This document shows positions 20,505 to 61,825 of a stretch of 64,000 nucleotides of DNA, piece after piece (within the stretch, counting starts at the first letter, position 1; each line of letters opens with the position of its first letter). The stretch comes from Wickerhamiella versatilis (taxonomy: Eukaryota). Under the pieces are notes generated by a model that saw only the letters and a list, made by a program, of their open reading frames with translations, did not search any database and had not been told where the DNA came from. Location of the stretch: positions 372,001-436,000 of the forward strand of contig JAQOWU010000003.1 in the NCBI GenBank assembly GCA_030867685.1, in the 5' to 3' direction. The position numbers and the translations under genes are program-made.

Positions 20505-23500
20505 CTAAATAGGTTCATCACGAGGTTCAACGAGGATTTCATTTACGGAGACATGTTCTGGTTGGCGAAGAGCATAAACAATTGCATCAGCTACATTTTC
20601 TGGGTCTAGTATTTTTGCCCCCGAGCTTCCACCATATTGTTTGATTGCTTCTTCATCTGATGACATATTCAAAAGGTCTGTTGCACAGTTTCCTGGTTGA
20701 ATTGCAGTCACACGAAGTCCTTTGCCTGCAGTCTCAAGACGCAAAGACTGAAGAGTAGCTTCCACAAAAAACTTACTTGCAGAATAAACTCCCAGTCCCG
20801 GAAAAACCTTACGGCCGGCATCTGATGAAATTGCGACAAAATGGCCTTTTCCACGAGAAAGCATATCTGGTACGGACGATGCAATACTATGGAGAAGACC
20901 TTTGCAATTAACATCAACAGTCCGATCCCATTCTTCAGTAACATTGTTTTGCATAAGCGTGAAATACATTACGCCAGCACATGATACCACTATGTCGACA
21001 GGACCCAGCTGAGAAGTAGTGTTCACAAAAAGCCGATGAACTTGTAGAGGATCAGTAACATCAGTCTCTTGGATAAGGATACGGCCATTATGTATAGCAA
21101 TACGTCTCCGGACATCCTGAAGGGCGGAGGAACGTCTAGCTGCGATTGCAACATGGCAACCTTCTCTCGCAAGAGCAACAGCAACGGCTGCTCCAATACC
21201 ACTTGAGGCACCTGTGACAACAGCAACCTTCCCACTGAGAGGACCCTTTGAGTGGGAATACGCTGAGCCACCCAGAGCGGAGCACGCACTGGGGCCATGA
21301 GGAAGCCAGCCTCGGGCATACCAGTGCTTGGTATATGTTTCCAACAATACTTTACCAATTACAGGCCGACTAAGTTGCTGCAGGAAACAACTAGTCTTTG
21401 TATTTTTGAGAACTATCACTCCAGTTAGAAAGTCTACTGACGGCATGCCGGAGCGTAATACATCTAAGGTAAAAGCACCTTCACCTCCCCTTATGCCTGC
21501 ACGCGTTTCATTCCATTGGTGTACCCAAGCATCCCAAGAAAGATGTTCTGTTGGGTAACCCAGAGAAGATAATTCTCTGAAGACCGATCGCATGCTTGGC
21601 GGATCTGAATTGCCTAGATGAAAAACTGGCTGTTGAACAGTTAATGGATCATTTGCAAGATGAACAACGGCACTCGCAACAAAATCGACTGGAGTAATCT
21701 CAGCATACCAACCATCAACATCAGGAGCTTTCCCCATGTGGAGAGATTCAACCACAATTGCATTGAAAAGATCCCATGCATTAGATGCACCGCTTGAGCT
21801 GTGGCCGCAAATTGTACCAAGTCGGAATATGCGAAGTGGAATACCACGTCTGTAAGCTTCAGTGGCTAGCTGTTCAGCAACCCATTTGGTCTGACCATAC
21901 CCATCAGCAAGCTTTTCTGGGACCTCATCTACAGATAGCGAGTAGTCTTCAGGCCAGCCATCTTGAGAAGGGGGAAGAACACCATTCGTTGAGATATGAT
22001 GCACTGTAGACCCAGAAAGAGATGCTAATCGCAAAATTTCAGTTGTCCCACCTACATTAGCATCACGTAGCGCTGCGTAAGGGTACACCAAATTCACTGT
22101 CGCAGCTGCATGCACAATAACCTGGACACGTTCAACAAGCTCCGCGAAATCCTTTACAGATAAGCCAAGGTTTTTTTGAGAGATATTTCCAGGAAGAACC
22201 TCTATCCTATCCATAATAGAATCACGCCACAATCCCAAATCTAAGAGATGACGACGGATTCTAGCTACGCCACTCGGAATATCATTGTGCTCCGGAGTTT
22301 TGAACCTTACAAGACACACAATGTGTGCATTAGTTTTTTCCAGCAGCTCGTTCAGCAGAAATGCACCCAAAAATCCTGTAACTCCGGTTAGCAGGACAGT
22401 ATCTGCCTTATTGATGGGCTTGAAGCTGGTGTCTTCTCTAGGTGATATACTTGGATCCAGAGTACAGTCCTTCTTCAAAACAGAGACAAGGTCAGACTCC
22501 AATAATCCTGCATCACCATCCCTAAGTGCCCTAAGAGTACGCAAATGGCCAGGAATAGTTGCATCGTCTACAAGACGAGCTATCGGAACCTTGAACCCAA
22601 ATTCAGCATTCAACCGTGATGCAAGGTGAGCAAGTAGCAAAGAATGACCTCCAAGATCGAAGAAATTTACTTCTGTTGAGACTACGTGCCGTGGTACTTT
22701 CAGTGTGGACGCCCATATATCAGTGATAGTATCAACATTTATCGGGTCCCTGTCATTCTTCAGTGCCGGCTTTTTGTGGACCTCTGGTTCAACATCATCT
22801 GGCCTCTTGGGAAGTGGAAGACTCTTAAGATCAACTTTTCCAGAGACTGTATTAGTAGGAAGCTCAGGGAGCTCCATCCACAAAGTTGGAATCATGTACA
22901 GCGCAAGGTGAGGTGCAAGTACACGACGAGCCAGAGGACTGTAAGCAGAGTAAGAATCTATTTCAATCTTGGGGCGTTCTGCTGATGGTTTATTCTCATT
23001 GTCTGTCACAATGTAAGCGATAAGTTGCTTGTCTAAGCCGTCACCAACAGATGTCACAGCACAGTGACGTACCGCAAGATGCTCAATTATTGCACTCTCA
23101 ACTTTACCTGGAACAACAGAATATCCTCGAAGCTTTATCATGGCGCCGATACGACCGGTAATCTCTAACAATCCATTCTCAAGAATTCGAGCGACATCGC
23201 CTGTTCGATACATACGCGCACCTGGTGTGGCATCAAACGGATCAGAAACAAATGAAAGCGCTGTCGTTTCTGGTCTATTCAGGTAACCACGAGCGAGCAT
23301 TGGGCCACCAATATATAGTTCGCCAACAGTTCCGATTGGTGCTTTATGTCCTCTATTATCCAAAATGTATGTGTATCTTGGCTGAAGCGGGGGGCCTACG
23401 GGACAGTATTTCTCAGAAGAATCGAGCATTGATACCATTTCCCGAATATCACCACAGGCTATTTCATGAGTTTCACATGCACTGTAACAATTTAGCAAAC

Positions 23501-24383
23501 GTACTTTCGGCAATGCTTGCAATGCACGTCGCGCAAAATCCATAGTCACTACCTCCCCATTTAGCCATACACGCTTGAGATCAGGCAGCTCATTTGCAAG
23601 TCCGGTTGGATTCCGTGCCAGAATGGTGGCAAGTAGAGTAGGTGTGAACAGAGTTTCTGTCACCTTATGCTCACGAAGAAATTCGAGAAGAGCATCAGGG
23701 TCATATGATATCTCGTCAGGTACTGTAATGACAGTACCGCCGCGCAGCAACGGACGGATAATCTCCCAGATGAAAAACACATTGCATGCAACACGATCAC
23801 CAATATCAACATCACTAACAGTAAAGCGTAGATCATATGACAGCACAGGAGCTCTGTGGGGATTCGCAATGCCTTTAGGATGACCTGTTGTCCCTGAGGA
23901 GTAGGATACAAAGGACAGTCTGTCCAAATCGGTCTCAGCAGGAATGGGAGGAAGCTGAGGAACCCCCTGAACAGAAGTAGACCGCGATTCAGGTTCATCT
24001 AGCACCAACACAGGTATATCCTCTCTGATTTTTGAGGAATGCTCCTTAACTGTAACCACAGCCGTAGGGTTACTATCATCCAAAACATCAGAAAGCAATC
24101 GCGGAGGATAAGCAAGTTCAAGCTGCATAAATGCCCCACCAGCGTGTAAAATAGCTAGACATGCAATTACATAGTCTGCGCCCCGTCCAAGGTATACACC
24201 AACCTGACTGTCACGTCCCACACCTAGCCGTCTGAGCCTATGCCCCAACGACATGACTTTCAAATAGAGTTCAAAATACGTGTATCTGGTAGTATCATCC
24301 TCTAAGGCGAGCAAGTCTGGTGTTTCATTTACCTGCTGCACAAATAGTGCATTAAGATCCTTGCTCGTATCTATAATGGCCAT
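20505..24383 (-). CDS. ATRR: NRPS-like A-T-R1-R2 enzyme, glycine betaine reductase type
   Basis: Adenylation domain (YSSGTTGHPKG, YRTGD), carrier domain (FFDLGGHSL), thioester reductase (LLTGVTGFLG, GYGQTKWVAE) and C-terminal SDR (VTGASSGIG, YSASK, ...EPRDEPI). Confidence 0.9.
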   Translation of the reverse strand: MAIIDTSKDLNALFVQQVNETPDLLALEDDTTRYTYFELYLKVMSLGHRLRRLGVGRDSQVGVYLGRGADYVIACLAILHAGGAFMQLELAYPPRLLSDVLDDSNPTAVVTVKEHSSKIREDIPVLVLDEPESRSTSVQGVPQLPPIPAETDLDRLSFVSYSSGTTGHPKGIANPHRAPVLSYDLRFTVSDVDIGDRVACNVFFIWEIIRPLLRGGTVITVPDEISYDPDALLEFLREHKVTETLFTPTLLATILARNPTGLANELPDLKRVWLNGEVVTMDFARRALQALPKVRLLNCYSACETHEIACGDIREMVSMLDSSEKYCPVGPPLQPRYTYILDNRGHKAPIGTVGELYIGGPMLARGYLNRPETTALSFVSDPFDATPGARMYRTGDVARILENGLLEITGRIGAMIKLRGYSVVPGKVESAIIEHLAVRHCAVTSVGDGLDKQLIAYIVTDNENKPSAERPKIEIDSYSAYSPLARRVLAPHLALYMIPTLWMELPELPTNTVSGKVDLKSLPLPKRPDDVEPEVHKKPALKNDRDPINVDTITDIWASTLKVPRHVVSTEVNFFDLGGHSLLLAHLASRLNAEFGFKVPIARLVDDATIPGHLRTLRALRDGDAGLLESDLVSVLKKDCTLDPSISPREDTSFKPINKADTVLLTGVTGFLGAFLLNELLEKTNAHIVCLVRFKTPEHNDIPSGVARIRRHLLDLGLWRDSIMDRIEVLPGNISQKNLGLSVKDFAELVERVQVIVHAAATVNLVYPYAALRDANVGGTTEILRLASLSGSTVHHISTNGVLPPSQDGWPEDYSLSVDEVPEKLADGYGQTKWVAEQLATEAYRRGIPLRIFRLGTICGHSSSGASNAWDLFNAIVVESLHMGKAPDVDGWYAEITPVDFVASAVVHLANDPLTVQQPVFHLGNSDPPSMRSVFRELSSLGYPTEHLSWDAWVHQWNETRAGIRGGEGAFTLDVLRSGMPSVDFLTGVIVLKNTKTSCFLQQLSRPVIGKVLLETYTKHWYARGWLPHGPSACSALGGSAYSHSKGPLSGKVAVVTGASSGIGAAVAVALAREGCHVAIAARRSSALQDVRRRIAIHNGRILIQETDVTDPLQVHRLFVNTTSQLGPVDIVVSCAGVMYFTLMQNNVTEEWDRTVDVNCKGLLHSIASSVPDMLSRGKGHFVAISSDAGRKVFPGLGVYSASKFFVEATLQSLRLETAGKGLRVTAIQPGNCATDLLNMSSDEEAIKQYGGSSGAKILDPENVADAIVYALRQPEHVSVNEILVEPRDEPI

Positions 24384-51501: not shown

Positions 51502-53226
51502 ATGGTATTGGGGCTCTATAAACAAAGACCTTTCGTCTCGGTAGTTCTTGTATTGCTCATATCTATATGGGGAGTAATATACCTGCAAGATCTACGATTT
51601 TACAGATCTCACGAGCCTAGCATTAAAGCACCCTCTCCTCCAATCCACTTAGAGCAATACGCATGGCAGGATGAATTTAAAGATGATATTCCGCCCAAAC
51701 CTGACCATAGCATGTACCCTGGGTTCGATAATGAGGCCACCGAGGTATCATTTCCAACTGGAGAACTTCGATATAAATTTGGCACATCTGAAGTATGGAG
51801 GAGTCCTTCGCGTTATCCTTTTAGGGATAATCGTGTAGTAGAGCCAGTGGTAGGCAGCCTAGTACGTCCACTTTCGAATGATATTCTCCATCCTCTATGT
51901 AATGACATGTTTCTCATGTTCAAGACCGGTGCAGACATAATGTGGCGTAGAACCCCAGTTCACCTACACACCACACTCACAAGATTTCCTCATTTCGCAT
52001 TGTATAGCGATCGTCCCGGAATGATAGCGGGTTATGAGGTTATTGATATTTTGGCCGGTATGCCTCGAGACGTATTGAACAGCCATGAGCTAATTAAATA
52101 CCGAATTATGCACCAAATGCAAGATGAAGCGTGGATGTGGAGTGCTGAAGATATCTCAATGGCAGAGGGATGGAATATGGACCGATTCAAAAATGTTCCC
52201 ATGATGCTGCATGCCTATAAAAACGCTCCACCGAACACCAAGTGGTTCATAATGATCGATGATGACACTTACATATTATCATCTAATATCGCTAAGTATT
52301 TGAGCACTTTGGATAGCTCGCACCCTTATTACATTGGCAGTGCCGCCCAGGCGGGGTCGTACACTTTCGCCCATGGTGGATCCGGGGTGATCTTTTCGCG
52401 AGGTGCGCTTGACAAGCTTTTTGGACCTGACGCTGCGAAGCCACAGGACGAACTAATGGATGAATATGCTAGAAAGGCGCTCTATGTGAGCCCCTTTGGA
52501 GATCTTATGGCTAGCCTCATTCTTTCCGAGAAAGCAAATGTCTTCGTTAACACTAAGGACAAGAATGCAGACAAGGCCAAGCTCGATATGTTCAAACATG
52601 GTCGCGATATGTTCCAGGGTGAAACCGTATCTAGCACTTGGCTGAATGTGTATAACTGGTGCTACCCGTTGGGAACCTTCCACCACGAACGACCACAGGA
52701 GTTGGAACTGTTATGGGAATGGGAACAGACGCGAGCAAGAAATTCCGACTATCTTACATACTATGATCTGTATCGGGATTTTATTTTGCCGTATATTGCA
52801 GAAGAAGTTCCTGATTGGTTGATCCCGGGTGGAATCGTTTTGAACGCTGAAAAAACGGCGGAGACGCCTGAAATGTATAAAGGGAAACAGATTTGGCCTA
52901 ATGCAACTCAAGAACACTGTAGGCTTGCTTGTATGAGTCGTGAGGACTGCCTATCGTGGTCATTCAAATATAGCGAATGCCATGTTCACGAGAAGGGACT
53001 AATTAAAGGCGCAGCAGCTCCTATTCATGATGCTTCTGCAGATAAAGATACGTGGATCTCCGGTTTTCTTATAGATCGCATCAGAAAAATTCGCTCGAAA
53101 CAAAGGTGCGATCCTTTGAAAGAGCTGCCTCTAGGCTCATACAACGACTCGCCCGATACATCCGAGGGTTGGTATTACCGAAAACTAGAGGAGGAGGAAG
53201 ATAGGCCTCAAAGGACTCCCTACTAA
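51502..53226 (+). CDS. Fringe-like GT31 glycosyltransferase (tandem copy 1)
   Basis: TM anchor, FKTGA, MDRFKN.PM, WFIMIDDDTY, FAHGGSG and Cys-rich C-terminus. Confidence 0.9.
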   Translation: MVLGLYKQRPFVSVVLVLLISIWGVIYLQDLRFYRSHEPSIKAPSPPIHLEQYAWQDEFKDDIPPKPDHSMYPGFDNEATEVSFPTGELRYKFGTSEVWRSPSRYPFRDNRVVEPVVGSLVRPLSNDILHPLCNDMFLMFKTGADIMWRRTPVHLHTTLTRFPHFALYSDRPGMIAGYEVIDILAGMPRDVLNSHELIKYRIMHQMQDEAWMWSAEDISMAEGWNMDRFKNVPMMLHAYKNAPPNTKWFIMIDDDTYILSSNIAKYLSTLDSSHPYYIGSAAQAGSYTFAHGGSGVIFSRGALDKLFGPDAAKPQDELMDEYARKALYVSPFGDLMASLILSEKANVFVNTKDKNADKAKLDMFKHGRDMFQGETVSSTWLNVYNWCYPLGTFHHERPQELELLWEWEQTRARNSDYLTYYDLYRDFILPYIAEEVPDWLIPGGIVLNAEKTAETPEMYKGKQIWPNATQEHCRLACMSREDCLSWSFKYSECHVHEKGLIKGAAAPIHDASADKDTWISGFLIDRIRKIRSKQRCDPLKELPLGSYNDSPDTSEGWYYRKLEEEEDRPQRTPY

Positions 53227-53569
53227 GTTATTCCTTGCATTGTCTAAATGCCTAGTATCTGGGTATAAAAAATCAATCATTATTTTACTACAAGGAAATA
53301 AGATAGCATAATATTAAATTTATACATCTCGACATTATTTTTACTGTTGTGATCGTAAGTAGATAATATGAACTTAAAGCCGACGTAGCATGGCAGATAA
53401 ATAAGATCAAACGGTCCCCACTTTTCTTATTAAAAGTGAAACATAGCGTTGTCAGACCGGGTATCAGACCGTTTGCGAAAAACGCGGCCGCAGTTCCTGG
53501 TTTAGGGTTCTCACATTGATACTACACACGAAATTCGCTTGGTGCGGGTGGCTTCATGAGACCTCGGCC

Positions 53570-55156
53570 ATGATTCTACGACTTCACAATCGCCGAATAC
53601 TCCTCTTTCTTTTCACAGCATGTATAATCGTATTGTATACTGTATTCGTTCGTGGCGATTTTTCCCGCAAAATACAGATGTCGGGACTTCTCTCTAGTTT
53701 AGGTGGCCAAAAGATACTAGCATTACCACCACACTCTTACCTCACAACAAAACTGAATTCAGGTGAGGTTTGGCGGGACCCTTTTCGGTATCGCCAAGAT
53801 ACCATCCGTGCTCCACAGCCGATCCCCGGATCGGTTATTCGCCCCCTTTCTGACGATCCACTAGATCCACGAGCTGATGATATATTTCTCATGGCGAAAA
53901 CTGGTTCTGATGTCATGTGGAGTAGGATGCCGGTACATCTGCACACCACGTTCTCGAGGTTCCCTAATTTTGCGATATACAGCGACCGCCCAGGGACTAT
54001 AGCAGGATATGAGGTTATTGACATTCTCGCGGACATGCCAGAAGATGTATTGAATAGTCAAGATTTATTCAAGTACAGAATTATGCGCGAAATGCAGGAT
54101 GACGCGTGGACGTGGAGCGCCGAGGATATCACGCTAGAAGAGGGGTGGAATATGGACCGGTTTAAAAATATTCCCATGATGTTGCATGCATACAAAAACG
54201 CTCCGGCGAAGACTCAATGGTTTATAATGATCGATGATGATACCTACATGTTCTCCGGTAACATTGCCAAGTTTTTGAGGACGTTAGACAGTAGTCGCCC
54301 TTACTATATTGGAAGCATCGCTATGGTTCGTGATGTTTTTTTTGCACATGGTGGATCTGGTGTAATTTTTTCTAGAGCAGCACTGGATAAAGTTTTTGGG
54401 CCTGAAGCGAGGATGTCACATGAAGAACTTTTGAATAAGTACGCCAATAAAGCGCTTGATCTTAATCCTCCATTTGGGGATCTAATGGCTGCACATTTAT
54501 TGGAGTTTGATGGTGGTGTATATTTAAACACAAAAGACCCAGACTCTGTAATTGCTAAGTTGGACTTATTTGATCGCAGTCAGGATATGTTTCAGGGGGA
54601 AAGAATAGCTAGCACTTGGGTGAATGAAGACCTCTGGTGTTGCCCATTGGGGACATTCCACAAATTACGACCGAACGAAATAGAGACCTTATGGGAGTGG
54701 GAGCAATCAAGAGCCTCTCCCGGTTACCGACTACTTTATTATGACTTTTATCACGATTTCATATTGCCTTACATTTCCGAGGAGGTTGAAAACTGGGTTA
54801 TTCCTGGAGGCAAGATTCTTGATGACGCGTATATTAAAGAATCCCAAGGCGCTTATGATGATTGGGACAGTATGCCCAGCGAAGATAAAGAGAGCTGCAA
54901 AAAAGCCTGCATTAATATGGATAAGTGCCTATCCTGGTCCTTTAAACCTGGCGAGTGTCGTGTACAAGAAAATGGGGTATCCAGAGGGATTCACGCGAGT
55001 CTCGACGATCCGACATGGGTGTCTGGTTTCCTCATTAACAAGATCCGCAAAATTAGAATCGCTCAGACCTGTGATCCACTGACAGTGAGTGAACTGGGTA
55101 TTGTAAATGATTCTCCGAAAACGTCAGAAGGATGGTACCACCGTAAGCGTGCTTGA
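53570..55156 (+). CDS. Fringe-like GT31 glycosyltransferase (tandem copy 2)
   Basis: Close paralogue of 51502, sharing PVHLHTT..RFP.FA.YSDRPG.IAGYEVIDILA, WFIMIDDDTY and TSEGWY. ATG at 53570; the track starts at TTG 53516. Confidence 0.9.
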   Translation: MILRLHNRRILLFLFTACIIVLYTVFVRGDFSRKIQMSGLLSSLGGQKILALPPHSYLTTKLNSGEVWRDPFRYRQDTIRAPQPIPGSVIRPLSDDPLDPRADDIFLMAKTGSDVMWSRMPVHLHTTFSRFPNFAIYSDRPGTIAGYEVIDILADMPEDVLNSQDLFKYRIMREMQDDAWTWSAEDITLEEGWNMDRFKNIPMMLHAYKNAPAKTQWFIMIDDDTYMFSGNIAKFLRTLDSSRPYYIGSIAMVRDVFFAHGGSGVIFSRAALDKVFGPEARMSHEELLNKYANKALDLNPPFGDLMAAHLLEFDGGVYLNTKDPDSVIAKLDLFDRSQDMFQGERIASTWVNEDLWCCPLGTFHKLRPNEIETLWEWEQSRASPGYRLLYYDFYHDFILPYISEEVENWVIPGGKILDDAYIKESQGAYDDWDSMPSEDKESCKKACINMDKCLSWSFKPGECRVQENGVSRGIHASLDDPTWVSGFLINKIRKIRIAQTCDPLTVSELGIVNDSPKTSEGWYHRKRA

Positions 55157-55337: not shown

Positions 55338-56411
55338 TTACAGTTGGTTCATTAAAAATCCACTATTAATGAAGTCCTCAGGTTCAGCAACGAAACTAGT
55401 TATGCTTGTATAGTATGCATATCCATCGACGCGGACAATCACCGCATTTTTGCCCCGAAAATCTACTTCTTCCACTAATTCGGCACTGAAAGCACCTTTC
55501 CTATAGTGATTGGAAACCAATGAGTTGTAATTCCAGCGCATTCCAAGAGGACGACACCCTTTAGCGTGCGAGACGGCCATACGGGCGCATACGCATGAGC
55601 CTGTGGGTGATCTATCAATTTCATTATCGGCGAAAAAGCATAACCCCGTTTCGGAGTCATTCTCTTTGTCAGGGCTCGTAATCATGATACCATATAAAAA
55701 AGATAGTCTATCATCTTCAGGATGTTTCACTGCTTTCACAATTTCCGGTTGATTTTCGAGTTTCTTTTTAAGCTCTTTTGCCTTCTGGCCTACCTTATCG
55801 ATGTCAAAATCATCAGATAGGCTAGAAAGTCCAAAGTATTCACAGCTGATCAGCGCATAAAAGGCTCCACCATAGCCAACATCAACCGTCATTCCATCAA
55901 TGTTAATATTTAACGCAGAAGCAATGCAAGGAACGGAAAGAAATGATACCGGTCGCGAGGGATCTGATTTTCCCTGATGATTTACAGGTGCGCTGACTCT
56001 AACGATGCCACAAGGTGCATGAAGGTTTATATTCACGCTTGAAGCTCCAATTTGTTGTTTTGCAATACCAGCATCGACTAGATATCTGCCGAGAGCAATA
56101 GTGGCATGGCCACACATGGTAGAAAAGCCATCATTGTGTATAAATAGCACACCTATGTCAGCTTTTCCGGCCTCGGTATACTCAGTCTTAGGACACAATA
56201 TCGCACCATACATATCGAAATGGCCCCGAGGCTCAAATATTATTCGCTTCCGCAAGTAGTCATATTGTGTCGAAGCCTGTTCGCGCTGTTCTAGCAAGGT
56301 TCCAGACAGCTGGGGAAACCCCCCATATATGATTCTCGTTGGTTCCCCTGTTGTGTGCATTTCGACACAACGAATCGCATCTCGCTCCAAAATACTGAGT
56401 GACTCTATCAT
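55338..56411 (-). CDS. Proline racemase-family enzyme, trans-3-hydroxy-L-proline dehydratase type
   Basis: MHTTGEPTRI, EPRGH.DMYG, MCGHA (Cys) and DRSPTGS (Thr). The Cys/Thr pair marks dehydratases. ATG at 56411. Confidence 0.88.
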   Translation of the reverse strand: MIESLSILERDAIRCVEMHTTGEPTRIIYGGFPQLSGTLLEQREQASTQYDYLRKRIIFEPRGHFDMYGAILCPKTEYTEAGKADIGVLFIHNDGFSTMCGHATIALGRYLVDAGIAKQQIGASSVNINLHAPCGIVRVSAPVNHQGKSDPSRPVSFLSVPCIASALNINIDGMTVDVGYGGAFYALISCEYFGLSSLSDDFDIDKVGQKAKELKKKLENQPEIVKAVKHPEDDRLSFLYGIMITSPDKENDSETGLCFFADNEIDRSPTGSCVCARMAVSHAKGCRPLGMRWNYNSLVSNHYRKGAFSAELVEEVDFRGKNAVIVRVDGYAYYTSITSFVAEPEDFINSGFLMNQL

Positions 56412-56863
56412 AGTCCTGAGATTAATAATTTCGAGAGGAGCAGTTGACAGCAGGATCTTTCTCAACCAATAATTGGTTTCCAATAGGATATTTCGATACT
56501 TTATCTCAATAGTTGTGAATTAAAGCACAATTTGCTTACTCTTATAATAAAATTCCTATCGTCTTATGGTTCAGTTTGTTTTGCATTGCTTTTGATGTAA
56601 CAACCTTATCTAATGCGACCGATTCTTCCACCATATTGAGCTAAGACCTAATTAGACTTTTTTTTATTTTGTCACACTTTACCCGTTATCGCTAGATCAT
56701 TTGATTATGCTAGTGGAAGCTCTATATTATCTGATCCTCTCAAATCTTCTCACAGAGATTTGGACGAGCAGAGATAGCAGAATCAACTAAGTGATAACAC
56801 AGTTAGTTTTCGCAAATAGATGCCAAAAATAGTTACTCTGATTGAGTTAACATGCCTAGAAAC

Positions 56864-58288
56864 TCAATGTATAGGGAAAGCTTCAGATAGCCTGGTCATT
56901 CTGGCGGGATCTGTCACACTCCAAAATTTATGCGCTGCCTCCCCAACAAGATTAGAAGATTCCTCTAAGTCTTGCTTGTCGGATGGGGCAAAGGATATGC
57001 GGAAGTAGCGGGCCATATGATCTGCGTCATCAGGTACAGGGGCAAACATGTACCCAGGGCTCACTAAGGTTGGACGCGACTGCTCGGTTTGGAACATCCA
57101 AAATGCTCTTGATAGGTTAAGGGACCCGATTCTTTCATACAGAGGATGACGCTCAAAGTGTACAAGTACCCATACGAACATACCTGCCTGGGGCGGTGAA
57201 TAGTCCAGGATACGCTCTGCGCCCATATACATCCACTTCTCAAGCCCACGACATAATAAGTCCCTCCGTTCGTGATATTCTCTCTCTAGGCTTTCCAGCC
57301 AGTTCATCCACCCTGCATGACCCCAGTTTTTAAGCGTTTTAAGCACTATCAGTTGGGAAAATCCGGAGGGATGCGCATTAACTTCTTCGGTCTGATAGTA
57401 CAGTCTCCTTATAAGGGATGGCTGAGCAGTCACCCAGCCGAGTCGTGAGCCTGGAGCAAAGTTCTTGGAAAAACTATCAAGACGAATAACCCGTCCATCA
57501 ATATCTATCTGTAAATAACATTTCTCTTTTTCGGGGCTGTACTGTAGAAACCAATACGGTTCGTCTTCAGCAATGATAACATCGAAATCACTGAGTATTT
57601 TATAAAGTTCCTTTCGACGACTCAGAGGTGTGGTTGCACCAGTCGGGTTCTGGCCAATACTTACTGTATAGAGGAGATGGGGTCTTTTACCTTTCGTGGA
57701 GTCCCAATTCGCCAGGGTCTCGTACAGGGCATCGGGTAGCATACCATACTGGTCCATTGCAACCGAGACCACGTTGAGGCCACGAACACGAGCAGCCTCC
57801 GCTGCGCATGAATATGTGAACTCTTCAACAAGAATTCCCTGGCGGTTATTTACATCACCCTCATCATCCCACTCATTACTCAGGACTTGGAGGACCTTGG
57901 ACCATCCGTCAGTAGTACCGGAGGTAATGAGAGTCTCAAATCCTGGTTCATATAGGGGTGTAGCAATGTAGTCATAGGTAAATTTGCGAATCCACTCCGC
58001 CAGTTCCTTCAATCCCGATGCTTTGCCGTATTGAAGTCCGTTCTCCAAATCACGATGTGATGCTGAGACAATATGCTCTGGAGCCGATGGGTTTTCAAGG
58101 CGTTCCGGGTCGGCAGTCTCCGCCTGCACCCAGTCAATAGGGAAAAGTGATGGGTGAGGAAGCCCACCACTGAGGTCACTTATACCAGGAAGTTCTTGAT
58201 ATTTATAGAATAGCTTGTACACGTTGGCTTTCCGACGACGTGCTGGACCACTCAGGTAATGCTCTAATGATACTGGTTGAGGACCCAT
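56864..58288 (-). CDS. PLP-dependent class I aminotransferase (Aro8/2-aminoadipate transaminase-like)
   Basis: LSGGLP, LQYG...G, LYTV..GQNPTG, EDEPY, DSFSK..APG.RLGW (PLP Lys) and AGMF.W. ATG at 58288. Confidence 0.9.
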   Translation of the reverse strand: MGPQPVSLEHYLSGPARRRKANVYKLFYKYQELPGISDLSGGLPHPSLFPIDWVQAETADPERLENPSAPEHIVSASHRDLENGLQYGKASGLKELAEWIRKFTYDYIATPLYEPGFETLITSGTTDGWSKVLQVLSNEWDDEGDVNNRQGILVEEFTYSCAAEAARVRGLNVVSVAMDQYGMLPDALYETLANWDSTKGKRPHLLYTVSIGQNPTGATTPLSRRKELYKILSDFDVIIAEDEPYWFLQYSPEKEKCYLQIDIDGRVIRLDSFSKNFAPGSRLGWVTAQPSLIRRLYYQTEEVNAHPSGFSQLIVLKTLKNWGHAGWMNWLESLEREYHERRDLLCRGLEKWMYMGAERILDYSPPQAGMFVWVLVHFERHPLYERIGSLNLSRAFWMFQTEQSRPTLVSPGYMFAPVPDDADHMARYFRISFAPSDKQDLEESSNLVGEAAHKFWSVTDPARMTRLSEAFPIH

Positions 58289-58706
58289 TCTGTCAATTGC
58301 TAGTGGGGGGACTTTCACAAGACAGGGTAGGTTACTCCGCAGGTGATGACTGTACTCTTATCATGCTGGGGTTTCATCATTTAGCCGCCTGGCGGCTGTT
58401 GAACGCGTCCTCCGGAGCCATTAGGTTAGAAAGGGACATTATAGGATTGATAATGCTGCTTCAGATTTCTTTTGTTTGATTATGGCGCCTTTCTGCGATT
58501 ATTTATGTCCACCGATTACGACTTACCTTTAGAAGAAACTGGGACACAGTCTGTCTACCAACCAGTTCACTGTTATAGTATAAAATTTTTGGTAAATCAC
58601 TAGTACTACACGTAACGAATGGTAGGCGTCTTGCTTTAAGAGTAATATGTACCAACACCATCTAGCTAGAATATTAGCTCCATTTACCATAAAAGAGTAA
58701 GCACAA

Positions 58707-58786
58707 TTTGCATTTCTCACGCAAGTACAAGCTTGATCGAGTTCAAACGGTATCTTCTCAGCTCACATAGGAGCGCCCGCAGCAAA
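58707..58786 (-). ncRNA. TPP riboswitch aptamer, copy B (3'-most)
   Basis: Minus strand reads UUUGC-U-GCGGGC-GCUC-CUAUGU-GAGC-UGAGA-AGAUACCGU-UUGAA-CUC-GAU-CAAG-CUUGUA-CUUG-CGU-GAG-AAAU-GCAAA. Stems: P1 UUUGC/GCAAA, P2 GCGG/CCGU, P3 GCUC/GAGC, P4 CUC/GAG, P5 CAAG/CUUG. The UGAGA J3/2 and GCG motifs are present. Confidence 0.88.
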
Positions 58787-58882
58787 ATCATGCTTAGAAA
58801 ATGGCACACTGGACTCCTCTTCACACATGCTTAGAGATCAGAGGCAAAAGTCCAAGGAAAAATGAAGGAAATAAATAACCTA

Positions 58883-58968
58883 TAGCGTCGATCCTCACGC
58901 AAGTACAAGCTTGATCGAGTTCAAACGGTATATTCTCAGCCCAGCCAAGGGGCACCCGCACAACGCCA
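58883..58968 (-). ncRNA. TPP riboswitch aptamer, copy A
   Basis: Minus strand reads UGGCGUUG-U-GCGGGU-GCCC-CUUGGCU-GGGC-UGAGA-AUAUACCGU-UUGAA-CUC-GAU-CAAG-CUUGUA-CUUG-CGU-GAG-GAU-CGACGCUA. It has an 8-bp P1, P3 GCCC/GGGC and the TPP core motifs; only the L5 loop is atypical. Confidence 0.9.
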
Positions 58969-58977
58969 AAAAAAGAA

Positions 58978-59025
58978 CTGTATATGTTAGTCGTAACCGA
59001 TTCGTAATTTCATTTTGATACTTAC
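58978..59025 (-). other. 48-nt spliceosomal intron in the 3' UTR of the NCS1 permease
   Basis: CAG|GTAAGTAT donor at 59025, GACTAAC branch point at 58992-58986 and TACAG acceptor ending at 58978. It starts 46 nt after the TGA stop. Confidence 0.75.
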
Positions 59026-59071
59026 CTGGTCAGAAGGATAGGCCGTAATTGCATTCTGATGAATTAGGGTG

Positions 59072-60580
59072 TCATGTTACCACACCCCTAAAGTAAATCT
59101 CGATTGGACGCGTAACTAAATATGCAAACGCGGTAAACCCGAAAGAGAGGAAAGTGCCAAGTTCGCCACCCTCAACTCCAATTGTCTGGGCTAGTCGTCC
59201 AACATAGTAAGTCTGGTCCATTCCGATAACCGCCCCAGCTATTCCGCAGCAAAACGAAAACGTGGCGGCCCACATGATTGGAAAATGTCGAGGGTTGTCC
59301 CATTGGACCCACTGATAGTCTGGCTTCCCAATACGCATTACCAGTGTCTCCAGTATAAGAATAGTACCATACATCACACTCCAATAGCCAATCATGGGAA
59401 TAAAGTTATTCACAGTATCTGCCCACTTGCTACGGCCCACAGATGAGAGCACGAAAAATATGATACAGCCAAGAAATGTGTAAATAAAGCGCGGAAGCTT
59501 TTTCAGAGGTCTTCCTAATGTCTGACAACCAAGACCGAACGAGTACATCGTGAAAGTTAAATTGAAGATGATGGAAATGAAAACTAGGACAAGTAAAAAC
59601 TTACCACCACCTTTCCATCGCTTCATACTTTCTGCCAATAAGCCGGCGGCATTACCACCATCGTTATAAAATGCGTCATAGAGATTCTGGGATCCAAAGG
59701 TCGCACCCGCACTGAGTCCTACCCCAATTGCACCTACAAAAACGGTAGGAACCCACATTGCAAATAAGGTGGAGAAATAAACCTTCCATGGTTTACAATC
59801 TTCGGGGAAATAGATGTAGTAGTCCCCGCAGCCAATCCACGTGGAAGTGATTCCTACGCTGGACTGGAACATCCCTATCCAAGAAACAACTCCACCAGAT
59901 CCAGAACTTTTATTCGGAGCTATGGTGTCCCAGTCTCTTGCTGTGCAAATATACACCAACAGGAATGCAATCAGTACTGGCCCTACAAATATATTGTCGA
60001 ATAGAGATACAGTGGGAATTCCAAAAAGCGTAACAAGGGCAGTAGCTAGGAAAATGATTAGAATGCCATAGAAAGTGTCCATTGATTTGTCTGAAACTGC
60101 AGAAAGCAACTGGCCTCCAAATACTGCAGATACGATTGCAAATCCCACACCAGTGAGAAGATTCAGCAATGCAATAAATTTAGCAGGCCACCATCCAAAC
60201 TGGTATCGAACTCCAACCATCGATCTAAGCCCACTTCTTACACCCATTACTGCTCCAAAAGCACCAAAAAGGGATCCAACAAAGGTTCCGAAAAAAGACG
60301 CGCTTAACGAGCCCTTAAATCCAAGACCAAAAAGTTGGCTGCCGGTAAAGAAGCCCGTCATGGACGTAACACTTCCACAGGCAGCCAGCCATATAGCTAG
60401 AAGCCTCGAACAATGGCGCCAGTCAGCTTGAAGTCGTTCCTCAGGTATTCGCCTTTCAATGCCCCAGCCTTCGCCTTGCCTATATATCCAATCGACAACA
60501 AGCCAAAGATAGCGAAAAGGGGCATAAGGCCGGATCTCGGTATAGACACTCCCATACTTCTTTGATGCTTCTTGTGTCAT
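59072..60580 (-). CDS. NCS1 purine-cytosine permease family transporter (TPN1/FCY2-like)
   Basis: GIER, F.G..LFGL, G..SGLR.MV..RYQFGWW, V.GGQLL.AVS, DYY, YS.GL..Q, PR, NF..MIGYW and IGMDQTYYVG, with about 12 TM segments. Confidence 0.92.
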   Translation of the reverse strand: MTQEASKKYGSVYTEIRPYAPFRYLWLVVDWIYRQGEGWGIERRIPEERLQADWRHCSRLLAIWLAACGSVTSMTGFFTGSQLFGLGFKGSLSASFFGTFVGSLFGAFGAVMGVRSGLRSMVGVRYQFGWWPAKFIALLNLLTGVGFAIVSAVFGGQLLSAVSDKSMDTFYGILIIFLATALVTLFGIPTVSLFDNIFVGPVLIAFLLVYICTARDWDTIAPNKSSGSGGVVSWIGMFQSSVGITSTWIGCGDYYIYFPEDCKPWKVYFSTLFAMWVPTVFVGAIGVGLSAGATFGSQNLYDAFYNDGGNAAGLLAESMKRWKGGGKFLLVLVFISIIFNLTFTMYSFGLGCQTLGRPLKKLPRFIYTFLGCIIFFVLSSVGRSKWADTVNNFIPMIGYWSVMYGTILILETLVMRIGKPDYQWVQWDNPRHFPIMWAATFSFCCGIAGAVIGMDQTYYVGRLAQTIGVEGGELGTFLSFGFTAFAYLVTRPIEIYFRGVVT

Positions 60581-61072
60581 GATGCTTACAAGATTTCACG
60601 ACGAAGACACAGAACCCTCTTTCGTAGTCAGAGCGATGTAGTCATCGTTGCGGAACGGTAAGCATGAAACACTGAGTCATTCATAAGATTAGATTTCATG
60701 GGCAGTGTATTATTCGGGTTCTGGACATCTTCCGGATTGCTTGAAATGGCCTCTCTTTCGCTAGGAGCATCCCTCGGTAGCATAATTAAATTTGTTACTT
60801 GGTGTGCATTATTTACGCCCGAGTGAACTTATGAATTATGCAACTTATTTAGTTATCCCATTTTAATCAGCGCATATGAGTACTGCTAAGGTACTCTGAT
60901 CAGATGAGCACCTGTATAACTCACTGAGAGTCGCAGTTAGCAATCTTTTCACTACCAATTATATGGAGATAAATTTCATAAACAAATACGTTCTATTTAC
61001 TTTCTATAGACCACCTAAAAAATGCCTCTTGATTTCAACCTGTTAACTGCATGACGGAATATTGTTGGGCAT

Positions 61073-61825
61073 TCACGCGCAGAATCCACCGTCAACGTTG
61101 ATGGTAGTACCAGTAATGTGACCTGCCTCGGGGCTTGCCAGGAAGGCCACCGTAGCGGCAATATCTTCGGCTTTTCCATATTTACCATTGGCTGCAAATG
61201 ATTTGAGAGTCTCAGCAAATGGAACAGAGTCTGGATTCATGTCTGTATCGATGGGGCCAGGCTGAACCAGGTTGACTGTTATGTCCTTCTTTCCCAAGTC
61301 ACGAGCCCAGCCTCGAGTATATCCAGCAACGGCCGCCTTTGAGGCTGCGTAGTCGGCTAAGCCGGGAAGTGGGGCACGGTCCGCGAAGATGGAACCAATA
61401 TTAATGATTCGGCCACCAGGCTTTAACAGGGGGACTGCTGCACGCACTGCGATGGCAACACCTTTCACGTTGACTTCCAGCTGACGATCCAAAGCTTCAA
61501 TATCAGCATTAGGATCATCAACAGGAGCGCCTGCCAGTACCCCAGCATTGTTCACCAATATGTCAATACTACCAAAAGTCTCGTACGCCTTAGCTATAAG
61601 CGAGCGGATCTCTGAAGGAACGGCCTGATCAGCCTTAACCGGAAAGATCTCGGACCCACTTTTGAGCTGAACCTGTGTTGCCAAATTCTCAGCGTCCTGC
61701 GTTGACCTGCCATAGCTGAAGACAACGTTGGCCCCTGCATCAGCCAAGCTTCTAACAATTGCTGCACCTATACCACGAGAGCCACCAGTTACGACTGCTA
61801 CCTTTCCTTTAAGCGTTCCTGCCAT
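61073..61825 (-). CDS. Short-chain dehydrogenase/reductase, bacterial-like (BdcA/YjgI-type)
   Basis: VTGGSRGIGAAI, LVNNAG, GGRIINIGS, YAASK, ARDLG...ITVN.VQPGPIDTDMNP and DGGF. Confidence 0.92.
   Translation of the reverse strand: MAGTLKGKVAVVTGGSRGIGAAIVRSLADAGANVVFSYGRSTQDAENLATQVQLKSGSEIFPVKADQAVPSEIRSLIAKAYETFGSIDILVNNAGVLAGAPVDDPNADIEALDRQLEVNVKGVAIAVRAAVPLLKPGGRIINIGSIFADRAPLPGLADYAASKAAVAGYTRGWARDLGKKDITVNLVQPGPIDTDMNPDSVPFAETLKSFAANGKYGKAEDIAATVAFLASPEAGHITGTTINVDGGFCA

Follow-up and report, generated by a model that had tools for sequence, protein, structure and literature searches.

The question raised by this locus is whether two thiamine pyrophosphate (TPP) riboswitch aptamers can lie in series behind the stop codon of a yeast transporter gene and, if so, what they might do there. 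The window, by which we mean the whole 64,000-nucleotide (nt) stretch of Wickerhamiella versatilis contig JAQOWU010000003.1 that was analysed (assembly GCA_030867685.1, positions 372,001 to 436,000, forward strand), encodes on its minus strand a permease of the NCS1 family. An initial annotation made from the letters alone had placed two complete TPP-aptamer folds, at 58707-58968, downstream of the stop codon of this gene. As set out below, the locus is a real, transcribed feature in which a known aptamer class occurs in a layout that we did not find described in fungi; the way in which it may work is put forward as a model.

The whole window was compared by cmscan with 4227 Rfam families at gathering score, which for the TPP family RF00059 means a cut-off of 54.3 bits. 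Exactly two matches were obtained, both to RF00059, both on the minus strand and both above the cut-off. Each covers the full covariance model, the span given in the initial annotation falls within the two, and their number is the one it had anticipated for such a search. The matches and the stretch between them are:

58875-58969, minus strand: TPP aptamer A (RF00059, 61.0 bits, E 1.7e-09, model positions 1-105 of 105)
58791-58874, minus strand: spacer between the aptamers (84 nt)
58696-58790, minus strand: TPP aptamer B (RF00059, 56.6 bits, E 1.9e-08, model positions 1-105 of 105)

A more permissive Rfam scan of 58200-60800 returned the same two RF00059 matches and no others. In the cmscan alignment, helices P1, P2, P3, P4 and P5 are paired in both aptamers and the optional P3a is absent. 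Both copies also carry the CUGAGA junction and the conserved core ACC..UUGAAC..GAUC..GCG..GGA, which are the ligand-contacting motifs of TPP aptamers. Non-standard pairs occur at the closing pairs of P1 and P3 in A and B and, in B only, at the P2-P3 junction pair, where a C/A mismatch is found. P1 comprises 7 bp in aptamer A and 5 bp in aptamer B, and the conserved G of the two-base junction after P4 is G in A and A in B. Both copies have the sequence and the architecture of the RF00059 family; judged by these matches they are genuine TPP aptamers, predicted to bind TPP.

From one copy to the next the period is 178 nt. As had been described, they share an identical core of 38 nt (58931-58894 in A, 58753-58716 in B), which alignment identifies as the longest identical run between them. 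Outside this run 35 of 59 aptamer columns are identical, and in the 60-nt flanks the figures are 29 of 67 and 23 of 61 columns, the level of unrelated sequence. No difference is seen in P2, P4, P5 or the CUGAGA junction. P3 reads GCCC/GGGC in A and GCUC/GAGC in B, one pair being altered on both sides (C-G to U-A), and of the four model pairs formed in P1 three are altered on both sides with pairing kept (G-C to U-A, U.G to G-C and G-C to C-G). The stem differences had been called compensatory, and the cmscan alignment agrees, with four two-sided changes that all remain paired. Given an unchanged 38-nt core, partial identity elsewhere in the aptamers, flanks that cannot be aligned and these paired two-sided changes, the pattern of differences points to selection on both folds. 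The earlier proposal to this effect is thereby supported, and both copies look constrained. Within the spacer, an exact 10-nt direct repeat (UCUAAGCAUG on the RNA) occupies 58835-58826 and 58798-58789, the second copy abutting aptamer B.

The transcript to which the aptamers belong was determined from RNA reads covering 57900-60750. They came from four public runs (X6, X9, X10 and X11) of two studies with the same species label; X9, X10 and X11 were poly(A)-selected, and joints were listed from a threshold of 3 reads. Three features frame the region:

59072-60580, minus strand: coding sequence (CDS) of the NCS1 permease, Fcy/Tpn1 type (502 amino acids, single exon, 1509 nt, stop TGA at 59074-59072)
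58640-59071, minus strand: 3′ untranslated region (UTR) of the permease mRNA (about 432 nt unspliced, holding an intron and both aptamers; from RNA depth)
56864-58328, minus strand: class I/II aminotransferase, the next gene downstream (CDS 58288-56864, 474 amino acids, PF00155; outside the riboswitch unit)

In all, 11 homologs align with the permease right up to its C-terminal residues, which makes the stop at 59074-59072 the natural end of the protein, and no splice joints were listed inside the CDS in the four runs. Coverage was continuous in all four from the CDS through both aptamers and the spacer, with no single read spanning both aptamers, and faded near 58640. In X10, depth was 23.1 at 58668-58763, 10.9 at 58572-58667 and 2.3 at 58476-58571; by the last of these bins depth has fallen about tenfold. 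A trough extends over 58380-58571, with 0.3-6 per strand as opposed to 45-120 in the first aminotransferase bins, and depth rises again only inside the aminotransferase. Loose ends behind 58328 (7 reads in X9, 16 in X10, 11 in X11) mark the 5′ end of the aminotransferase mRNA, 40 nt before its ATG; the foreign tag on these reads is presumably a library template-switch adaptor. This 5′ end places the aptamers outside the aminotransferase leader. Between the permease stop (59071) and aptamer B (58696) no loose ends of the 5′-end type were listed in the four runs. The aptamers therefore lie in the 3′ UTR of the permease mRNA, as two complete copies of the same class in series on that transcript: coverage, the spliced reads described next and the downstream 5′ end at about 58328 all agree with the position 3′ of the permease stop that the initial annotation had assigned to them. 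Transcription of the minus strand, on which its proposal also depended, was seen, including minus-strand splicing.

Between the permease stop and aptamer A the RNA reads revealed an intron, and read starts suggested where the mRNA may end. The corresponding features, with the splice signals of the intron assigned from the sequence, are:

58978-59025, minus strand: spliceosomal intron in the 3′ UTR (48 nt, canonical GT..AG, spliced reads)
59025-59020, minus strand: 5′ splice site GUAAGU of the intron
58992-58986, minus strand: branch-point-like GACUAAC of the intron
58980-58978, minus strand: 3′ splice site CAG of the intron
58979-58980, minus strand: candidate proximal cleavage/poly(A) site, inside the intron at its 3′ end (read-start pile-up)
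58640-58649, minus strand: candidate distal 3′ ends of the permease mRNA (plus-strand read starts of X9 at 58640, 6 reads, and 58649, 5 reads)
58666-58678, minus strand: branch-point-like GCUAAU followed by UAG, a possible distal 3′ splice site 18-30 nt past aptamer B (sequence only)

The intron begins 46 nt past the permease stop codon and ends 8 nt before aptamer A, its branch point lying close to its 3′ splice site. Eight X6 reads, all with different starts, and one X9 read record the joint as 58974/59026; X10 and X11 have none. Seven of the X6 reads carry 5 letters between the two sides of the joint. The X6 strain has two extra A in the A-run 58968-58974; these and 58975-58977 account for the 5 letters, so the junction lies exactly between 58977 and 59026. 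The GT..AG borders exist only in the minus-strand reading, which fixes the strand of the transcript as minus. On its shorter side the joint is covered by up to 40-47 letters of the spliced reads, a reach that puts the permease UTR and aptamer A on one molecule. Splicing amounted to about one tenth in X6 (about 8 spliced reads at a depth of about 68), the intron being mostly retained. Such poor splicing despite consensus signals agrees better with regulation than with constitutive removal of the intron.

In all three poly(A)-selected runs plus-strand reads start at 58980 (5 in X9 at a depth of 15, 6 in X10 at 19, 9 in X11 at 19). This pile-up lies 1-2 nt before the intron AG and is followed by a U-rich tract (58977-58968). 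At the other end of the UTR, plus-strand reads outnumber minus-strand reads in the bin 58668-58763 (25.1 to 3.3 in X9, 20.7 to 2.4 in X10, 13.1 to 2.4 in X11), an excess of 5-8 to 1 as expected just inside the 3′ end of a minus-strand RNA. The pile-ups of 5-9 molecules and the strand bias suggest that 58980 and 58640/58649 are the proximal and distal 3′ ends of the permease mRNA. The proximal end would leave a 3′ UTR of about 92 nt with no aptamers; the long form, of about 432 nt, holds both, with aptamer B about 50 nt before the distal ends. The 48-nt intron and the candidate 3′ end inside it, both absent from the initial annotation, are the likely expression platform.

How might such a pair act? 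The reading that we prefer, with confidence and doubt in even balance, is that the two TPP aptamers in the permease 3′ UTR act like the plant THIC riboswitch. That 3′-UTR TPP riboswitch was reportedly described by Wachter et al. in 2007. In plants the riboswitch controls a single 5′ splice site, and removal of the intron deletes a 3′-UTR processing signal and alters mRNA stability (PMC3597705). The W. versatilis locus resembles it in having an aptamer in the 3′ UTR past the stop, a 3′-UTR intron directly upstream, an apparent processing site in that intron, and apparently coexisting short and long UTR forms; its parts succeed one another as in THIC, from the stop codon through the 5′ splice site, the candidate processing site and the 3′ splice site to the aptamer. 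It differs in having two aptamers and an intron of 48 nt, in belonging to a transporter and not to a biosynthetic enzyme, in occurring in a fungus, and in a pairing between the 5′ splice site and P4/P5 that is not above chance.

According to this THIC-like model, an mRNA that retains the intron and is cleaved at the proximal site would end in the short UTR of about 92 nt, free of aptamers. Where the proximal site is bypassed or spliced away, transcription would read through both aptamers to about 58640 and yield a long, structured UTR with lower expression. Binding of TPP would shift the balance among proximal-site use, splicing and read-through to the distal site, such that high TPP would favour the long, aptamer-bearing form and the permease would be repressed. 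The second aptamer may sharpen or back up the response. The permease itself probably takes up thiamine or a thiamine precursor; NCS1 transporters of Fcy/Tpn1 type are reported to carry TPP riboswitches in other fungi (PMC5997356). We lean towards doubt, without dismissing it, on the wider proposal that this is the first eukaryotic tandem riboswitch with transcript support, in which plant-style control of 3′-UTR splicing and polyadenylation would be exerted in a budding-yeast-like fungus by two TPP aptamers in series, either as an independent re-invention of THIC or as a relic of a kind of 3′-end control that fungi had been believed not to possess; two aptamers would then give a steeper or two-threshold shut-off of an importer of a vitamin or its precursor.

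A number of results weigh against the THIC-like model. Most aptamer-containing reads retain the intron, so the proximal site is often bypassed without splicing, and a strict THIC model predicts otherwise. At neither 58980 nor 58640/58649 were poly(A) or poly(T) loose ends listed in the four runs, and with no tails listed both 3′ ends are inferred. Folding by free energy alone brings neither aptamer into the TPP shape (z -0.45 and +0.30), as is often so for folds that depend on a ligand. Of the two copies, aptamer B is the weaker, only 2.3 bits over the cut-off and with A replacing G in the junction after P4. Pairing of the 5′ splice site with P4/P5 is used in the plant and Neurospora models. 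Here, a pairing of 8 bp between the core GUACUUGC and the splice site GGUAAGUAU can be drawn by eye, with energies no better than those of shuffled and random controls: the best duplexes (-14.6 and -14.4 kcal/mol) were equalled by 25% of the shuffled aptamers and by 50% of 25-mers drawn at random from the window. When the ensemble is folded, the 5′ splice site pairs with nearby bases of the intron itself. No informative alternative structure came from folding the whole UTR or the stretch from the stop codon to aptamer A, and a scan for bacterial promoters and terminators, irrelevant to a eukaryote, gave nothing above shuffles. Comparative support is lacking as well, since RF00059 was found at none of 13 metagenome loci encoding permeases 31-41% identical to this one; these are probably paralogous families, one of the loci (L001) has only 270 nt of 3′ flank, and at such a distance they have no bearing on orthologs.

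Several of these points would also suit aptamer copies that are conserved or recently converted and may still bind TPP, without control of the permease, an outcome that we regard as unlikely. A precedent exists in diatoms, where strongly conserved TPP aptamers occur in the 3′ UTRs of thiamine-related genes with P1 near a predicted poly(A) signal; they were shown experimentally not to regulate, having no effect on transcript level, splicing or polyadenylation (PMC9544697), a result that counts against a switch at the present locus too. The chance-level pairing of the expression platform, the score of aptamer B near the cut-off and the permease loci free of RF00059 lean in the same direction. 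The diatom aptamers, however, are single and have no adjacent intron (PMC9544697), whereas at the permease aptamer A has as its direct neighbours an intron that is poorly spliced despite consensus signals, and a putative 3′ end. Aptamers with no role in control also sit badly with an unchanged 38-nt core beside stems that have diverged and still pair.

Strain variation likewise argues for control of the permease, within the limits of the table used. Differences between the four RNA runs and the window were tabulated in 61 rows, of which the best 40 are listed. None of these 40 falls between 58466 and 58992, which includes both aptamers and the spacer; the other 21 rows lie outside the listing, which tells against the argument. 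By comparison, at least 26 X6-specific rows (about 1.7%) fall in the 1509-nt permease CDS. A fixed X6 difference at 58668-58992 should have been listed, since a row of 10 reads (58465) was and X6 depth there is 25-68. Nearby variants spare the splice signals, 58993/58994 lying just 5′ of the branch point and 59018 at intron position 8, and a variant at 58967 alters only the length of the U-run before P1. The tandem arrangement is present and unchanged in at least 3 genotypes. Within the permease CDS, an in-frame insertion of 3 nt at 59686 was seen in the X9-X11 strains (12 of 17, 16 of 20 and 19 of 23 reads) and not in X6.

Another explanation, which we hold to be improbable to much the same degree, departs from the THIC-like model in the position of the intron. 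It would place both aptamers, in the manner of other fungi, inside an alternative 3′-UTR intron of about 360 nt (59025 to about 58666). At low TPP this intron would be removed, leaving a compact UTR that ends at 58649/58640; at high TPP the folded aptamers would block the splice and the long UTR would lower expression. Fungal TPP riboswitches generally sit in introns of the 5′ UTR or early coding sequence (PMC5882874, PMC5997356, PMC11683625), and thiamine repression through splicing is their expected logic (PMC3597705, PMC5997356). The locus shares with N. crassa NMT1, NCU01977 and Candida/Ogataea DUR31 the aptamer family and splice signals beside the aptamer; it differs from the fungal intronic riboswitches in that its CDS always stays intact and in that the proven intron precedes the aptamers and does not enclose them.

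A distal 3′ splice site for the long intron is suggested by the branch-point-like GCUAAU and the UAG past aptamer B, although the proven intron, with GACUAAC, has the stronger signal. It gains some weight from a third aptamer. Loose ends at 58891 were present in all four runs (23, 13, 20 and 7 reads), and of these reads only about 45 nt of shared core (58891-58935) match; they continue into foreign sequence with GACUAAC at the place that corresponds to the GCUAAU of aptamer B. A splice at 58891 was considered and rejected, as the skipped side has no GT start, only the shared core matches, and the foreign sequence is the same in all four runs. The loose ends indicate that a third TPP aptamer, if not more, is expressed from another locus of the genome and probably lies in an intron. 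Since its core is followed by GACUAAC at the matching place, aptamer B looks intron-borne too. For the yeast DUR31 riboswitch the spliced product is reported only without thiamin (PMC5997356), and mostly unspliced RNA would fit if the cultures were thiamine-replete. Against the long intron, the joints listed for the four runs include none that links 59025 to about 58666, nor any other at the possible distal 3′ splice site (58666-58678), and both aptamers come after the proven 3′ splice site at 58978.

That the aptamers instead belong to a 5′ leader of the aminotransferase, whose start codon lies 408-681 nt downstream on the same strand, or to a separate non-coding RNA such as the small transcripts without clear coding potential predicted to hold riboswitches in Brettanomyces (PMC5997356), is very improbable, for while short reads cannot prove CDS and aptamers on one molecule, the aminotransferase 5′ end is marked at 58328 (7, 16 and 11 reads in X9, X10 and X11), the trough at 58380-58571 (0.3-6 per strand against 45-120) separates the two genes, no 5′-end-type loose ends were listed at 59071-58696, and spliced reads tie the UTR right after the permease stop to aptamer A.

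The claim that a tandem 3′-UTR TPP switch in a yeast is undescribed stands for the combination, which we did not find in the literature; it does not stand for the components, since 3′-UTR, doubled and Tpn1/Fcy21-linked aptamers have been reported separately. Tandem TPP riboswitches are reportedly found at tenA of Bacillus anthracis, where Welz and Breaker are said to have described in 2007 a 5′ leader with a terminator platform for each aptamer. Like tenA, the permease locus has a pair of full aptamers of one class, one behind the other on a single transcript; here, by contrast, the setting is eukaryotic, the position is the 3′ UTR, and the candidate platforms are splice and poly(A) signals. 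Among eukaryotes, Mukherjee 2018 computed two aptamers in a 5′-UTR intron of Saprolegnia NMT1, and 3′-UTR aptamers at eIF5B genes of Postia placenta that the authors' own structure-based check could not validate (PMC5882874). The former thus concerns an oomycete and the 5′ end, the latter single aptamers at a gene unrelated to thiamine; in the relevant sections of that paper neither case is both tandem and 3′, and neither comes with transcript evidence (PMC5882874).

Donovan 2018 reported TPP riboswitches in Tpn1/Fcy21-like transporters of four filamentous fungi (Pezizomycotina) and none among the 86 Saccharomycotina genomes of that survey (PMC5997356). These genes, of the class of A. nidulans AN4526.2, likewise combine a PF02133 transporter of Fcy/Tpn1 type with a TPP aptamer, a likeness at the level of the broad transporter family; the section on them is silent on tandem copies and 3′ placement, and the word 'tandem' is absent from the paper (PMC5997356). 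In Blastobotrys adeninivorans three TPP riboswitch candidates are reported, all in 5′ regions (PMC4022394). We found no publication that describes two TPP aptamers in series in the 3′ UTR of a fungal gene, though the supplementary hit lists of Donovan 2018 and Mukherjee 2018 might include the locus.

The eukaryotic riboswitch mechanisms shown in the literature cited here involve a single TPP aptamer, and the validated fungal cases all lie in 5′ introns. A tandem pair in a fungal 3′ UTR, beside a poorly spliced intron in which a cleavage site seems to lie, would widen the range of eukaryotic riboswitch platforms, and cooperative sensing could be tested in a eukaryote. The finding would also draw attention to an Fcy/Tpn1-like permease, so far uncharacterised, as a possible importer of thiamine or of one of its precursors, and a compact, portable, thiamine-responsive 3′-UTR cassette would serve yeast engineering.

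The permease matches Pfam family PF02133 (E 2.8e-11). It scores 118 bits with TIGR00800 (ncs1), under the cut-off of that model, and matches CytX weakly (31.5 bits, far under the cut-off). Its closest named relatives are from budding yeasts (32-41% identity), the best being Tpn1p of Sugiyamaella (41%) and a purine-cytosine permease of Magnusiomyces (37%). Closer permeases, at 79% and 61% identity, exist in unannotated assemblies, the only source of close relatives (56-100% identical) of the permease and the aminotransferase. The closest named relatives of the latter are from Penicillium (39%), Trichomonascus (38%) and Sugiyamaella (37%). The linkage of the two genes may be conserved in a relative with a permease at 79% (P0002) and an aminotransferase at 80% (P0017).

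The 5′ end of the aminotransferase differs by study, with adaptor-like ends at 58328 in X9-X11 and, in X6, a 13-letter loose end at 58308 together with a 2-nt deletion at 58305. Four genes on the same strand stand in a row at 55338-61825, namely a proline-racemase-like gene (PF05544), the aminotransferase, the riboswitch-bearing permease and a short-chain dehydrogenase; they may form a catabolic or salvage cluster. The window as a whole is gene-dense, with 28 open reading frames of at least 250 amino acids in 64 kb, and encodes fungal Zn2Cys6 regulators. Together with the intron signals and the named relatives, this suggests a budding-yeast lineage that lacks close annotated relatives. At 20505-24383 it encodes a protein of 1292 amino acids with AMP-binding, PP-binding, NAD_binding_4 (reductase) and C-terminal short-chain dehydrogenase domains, which resembles a carboxylic acid reductase with an extra short-chain dehydrogenase domain. 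Two adjacent Fringe-like proteins (PF02434) of 574 and 528 amino acids, encoded on the plus strand at 51502-55156, look like a tandem duplication.

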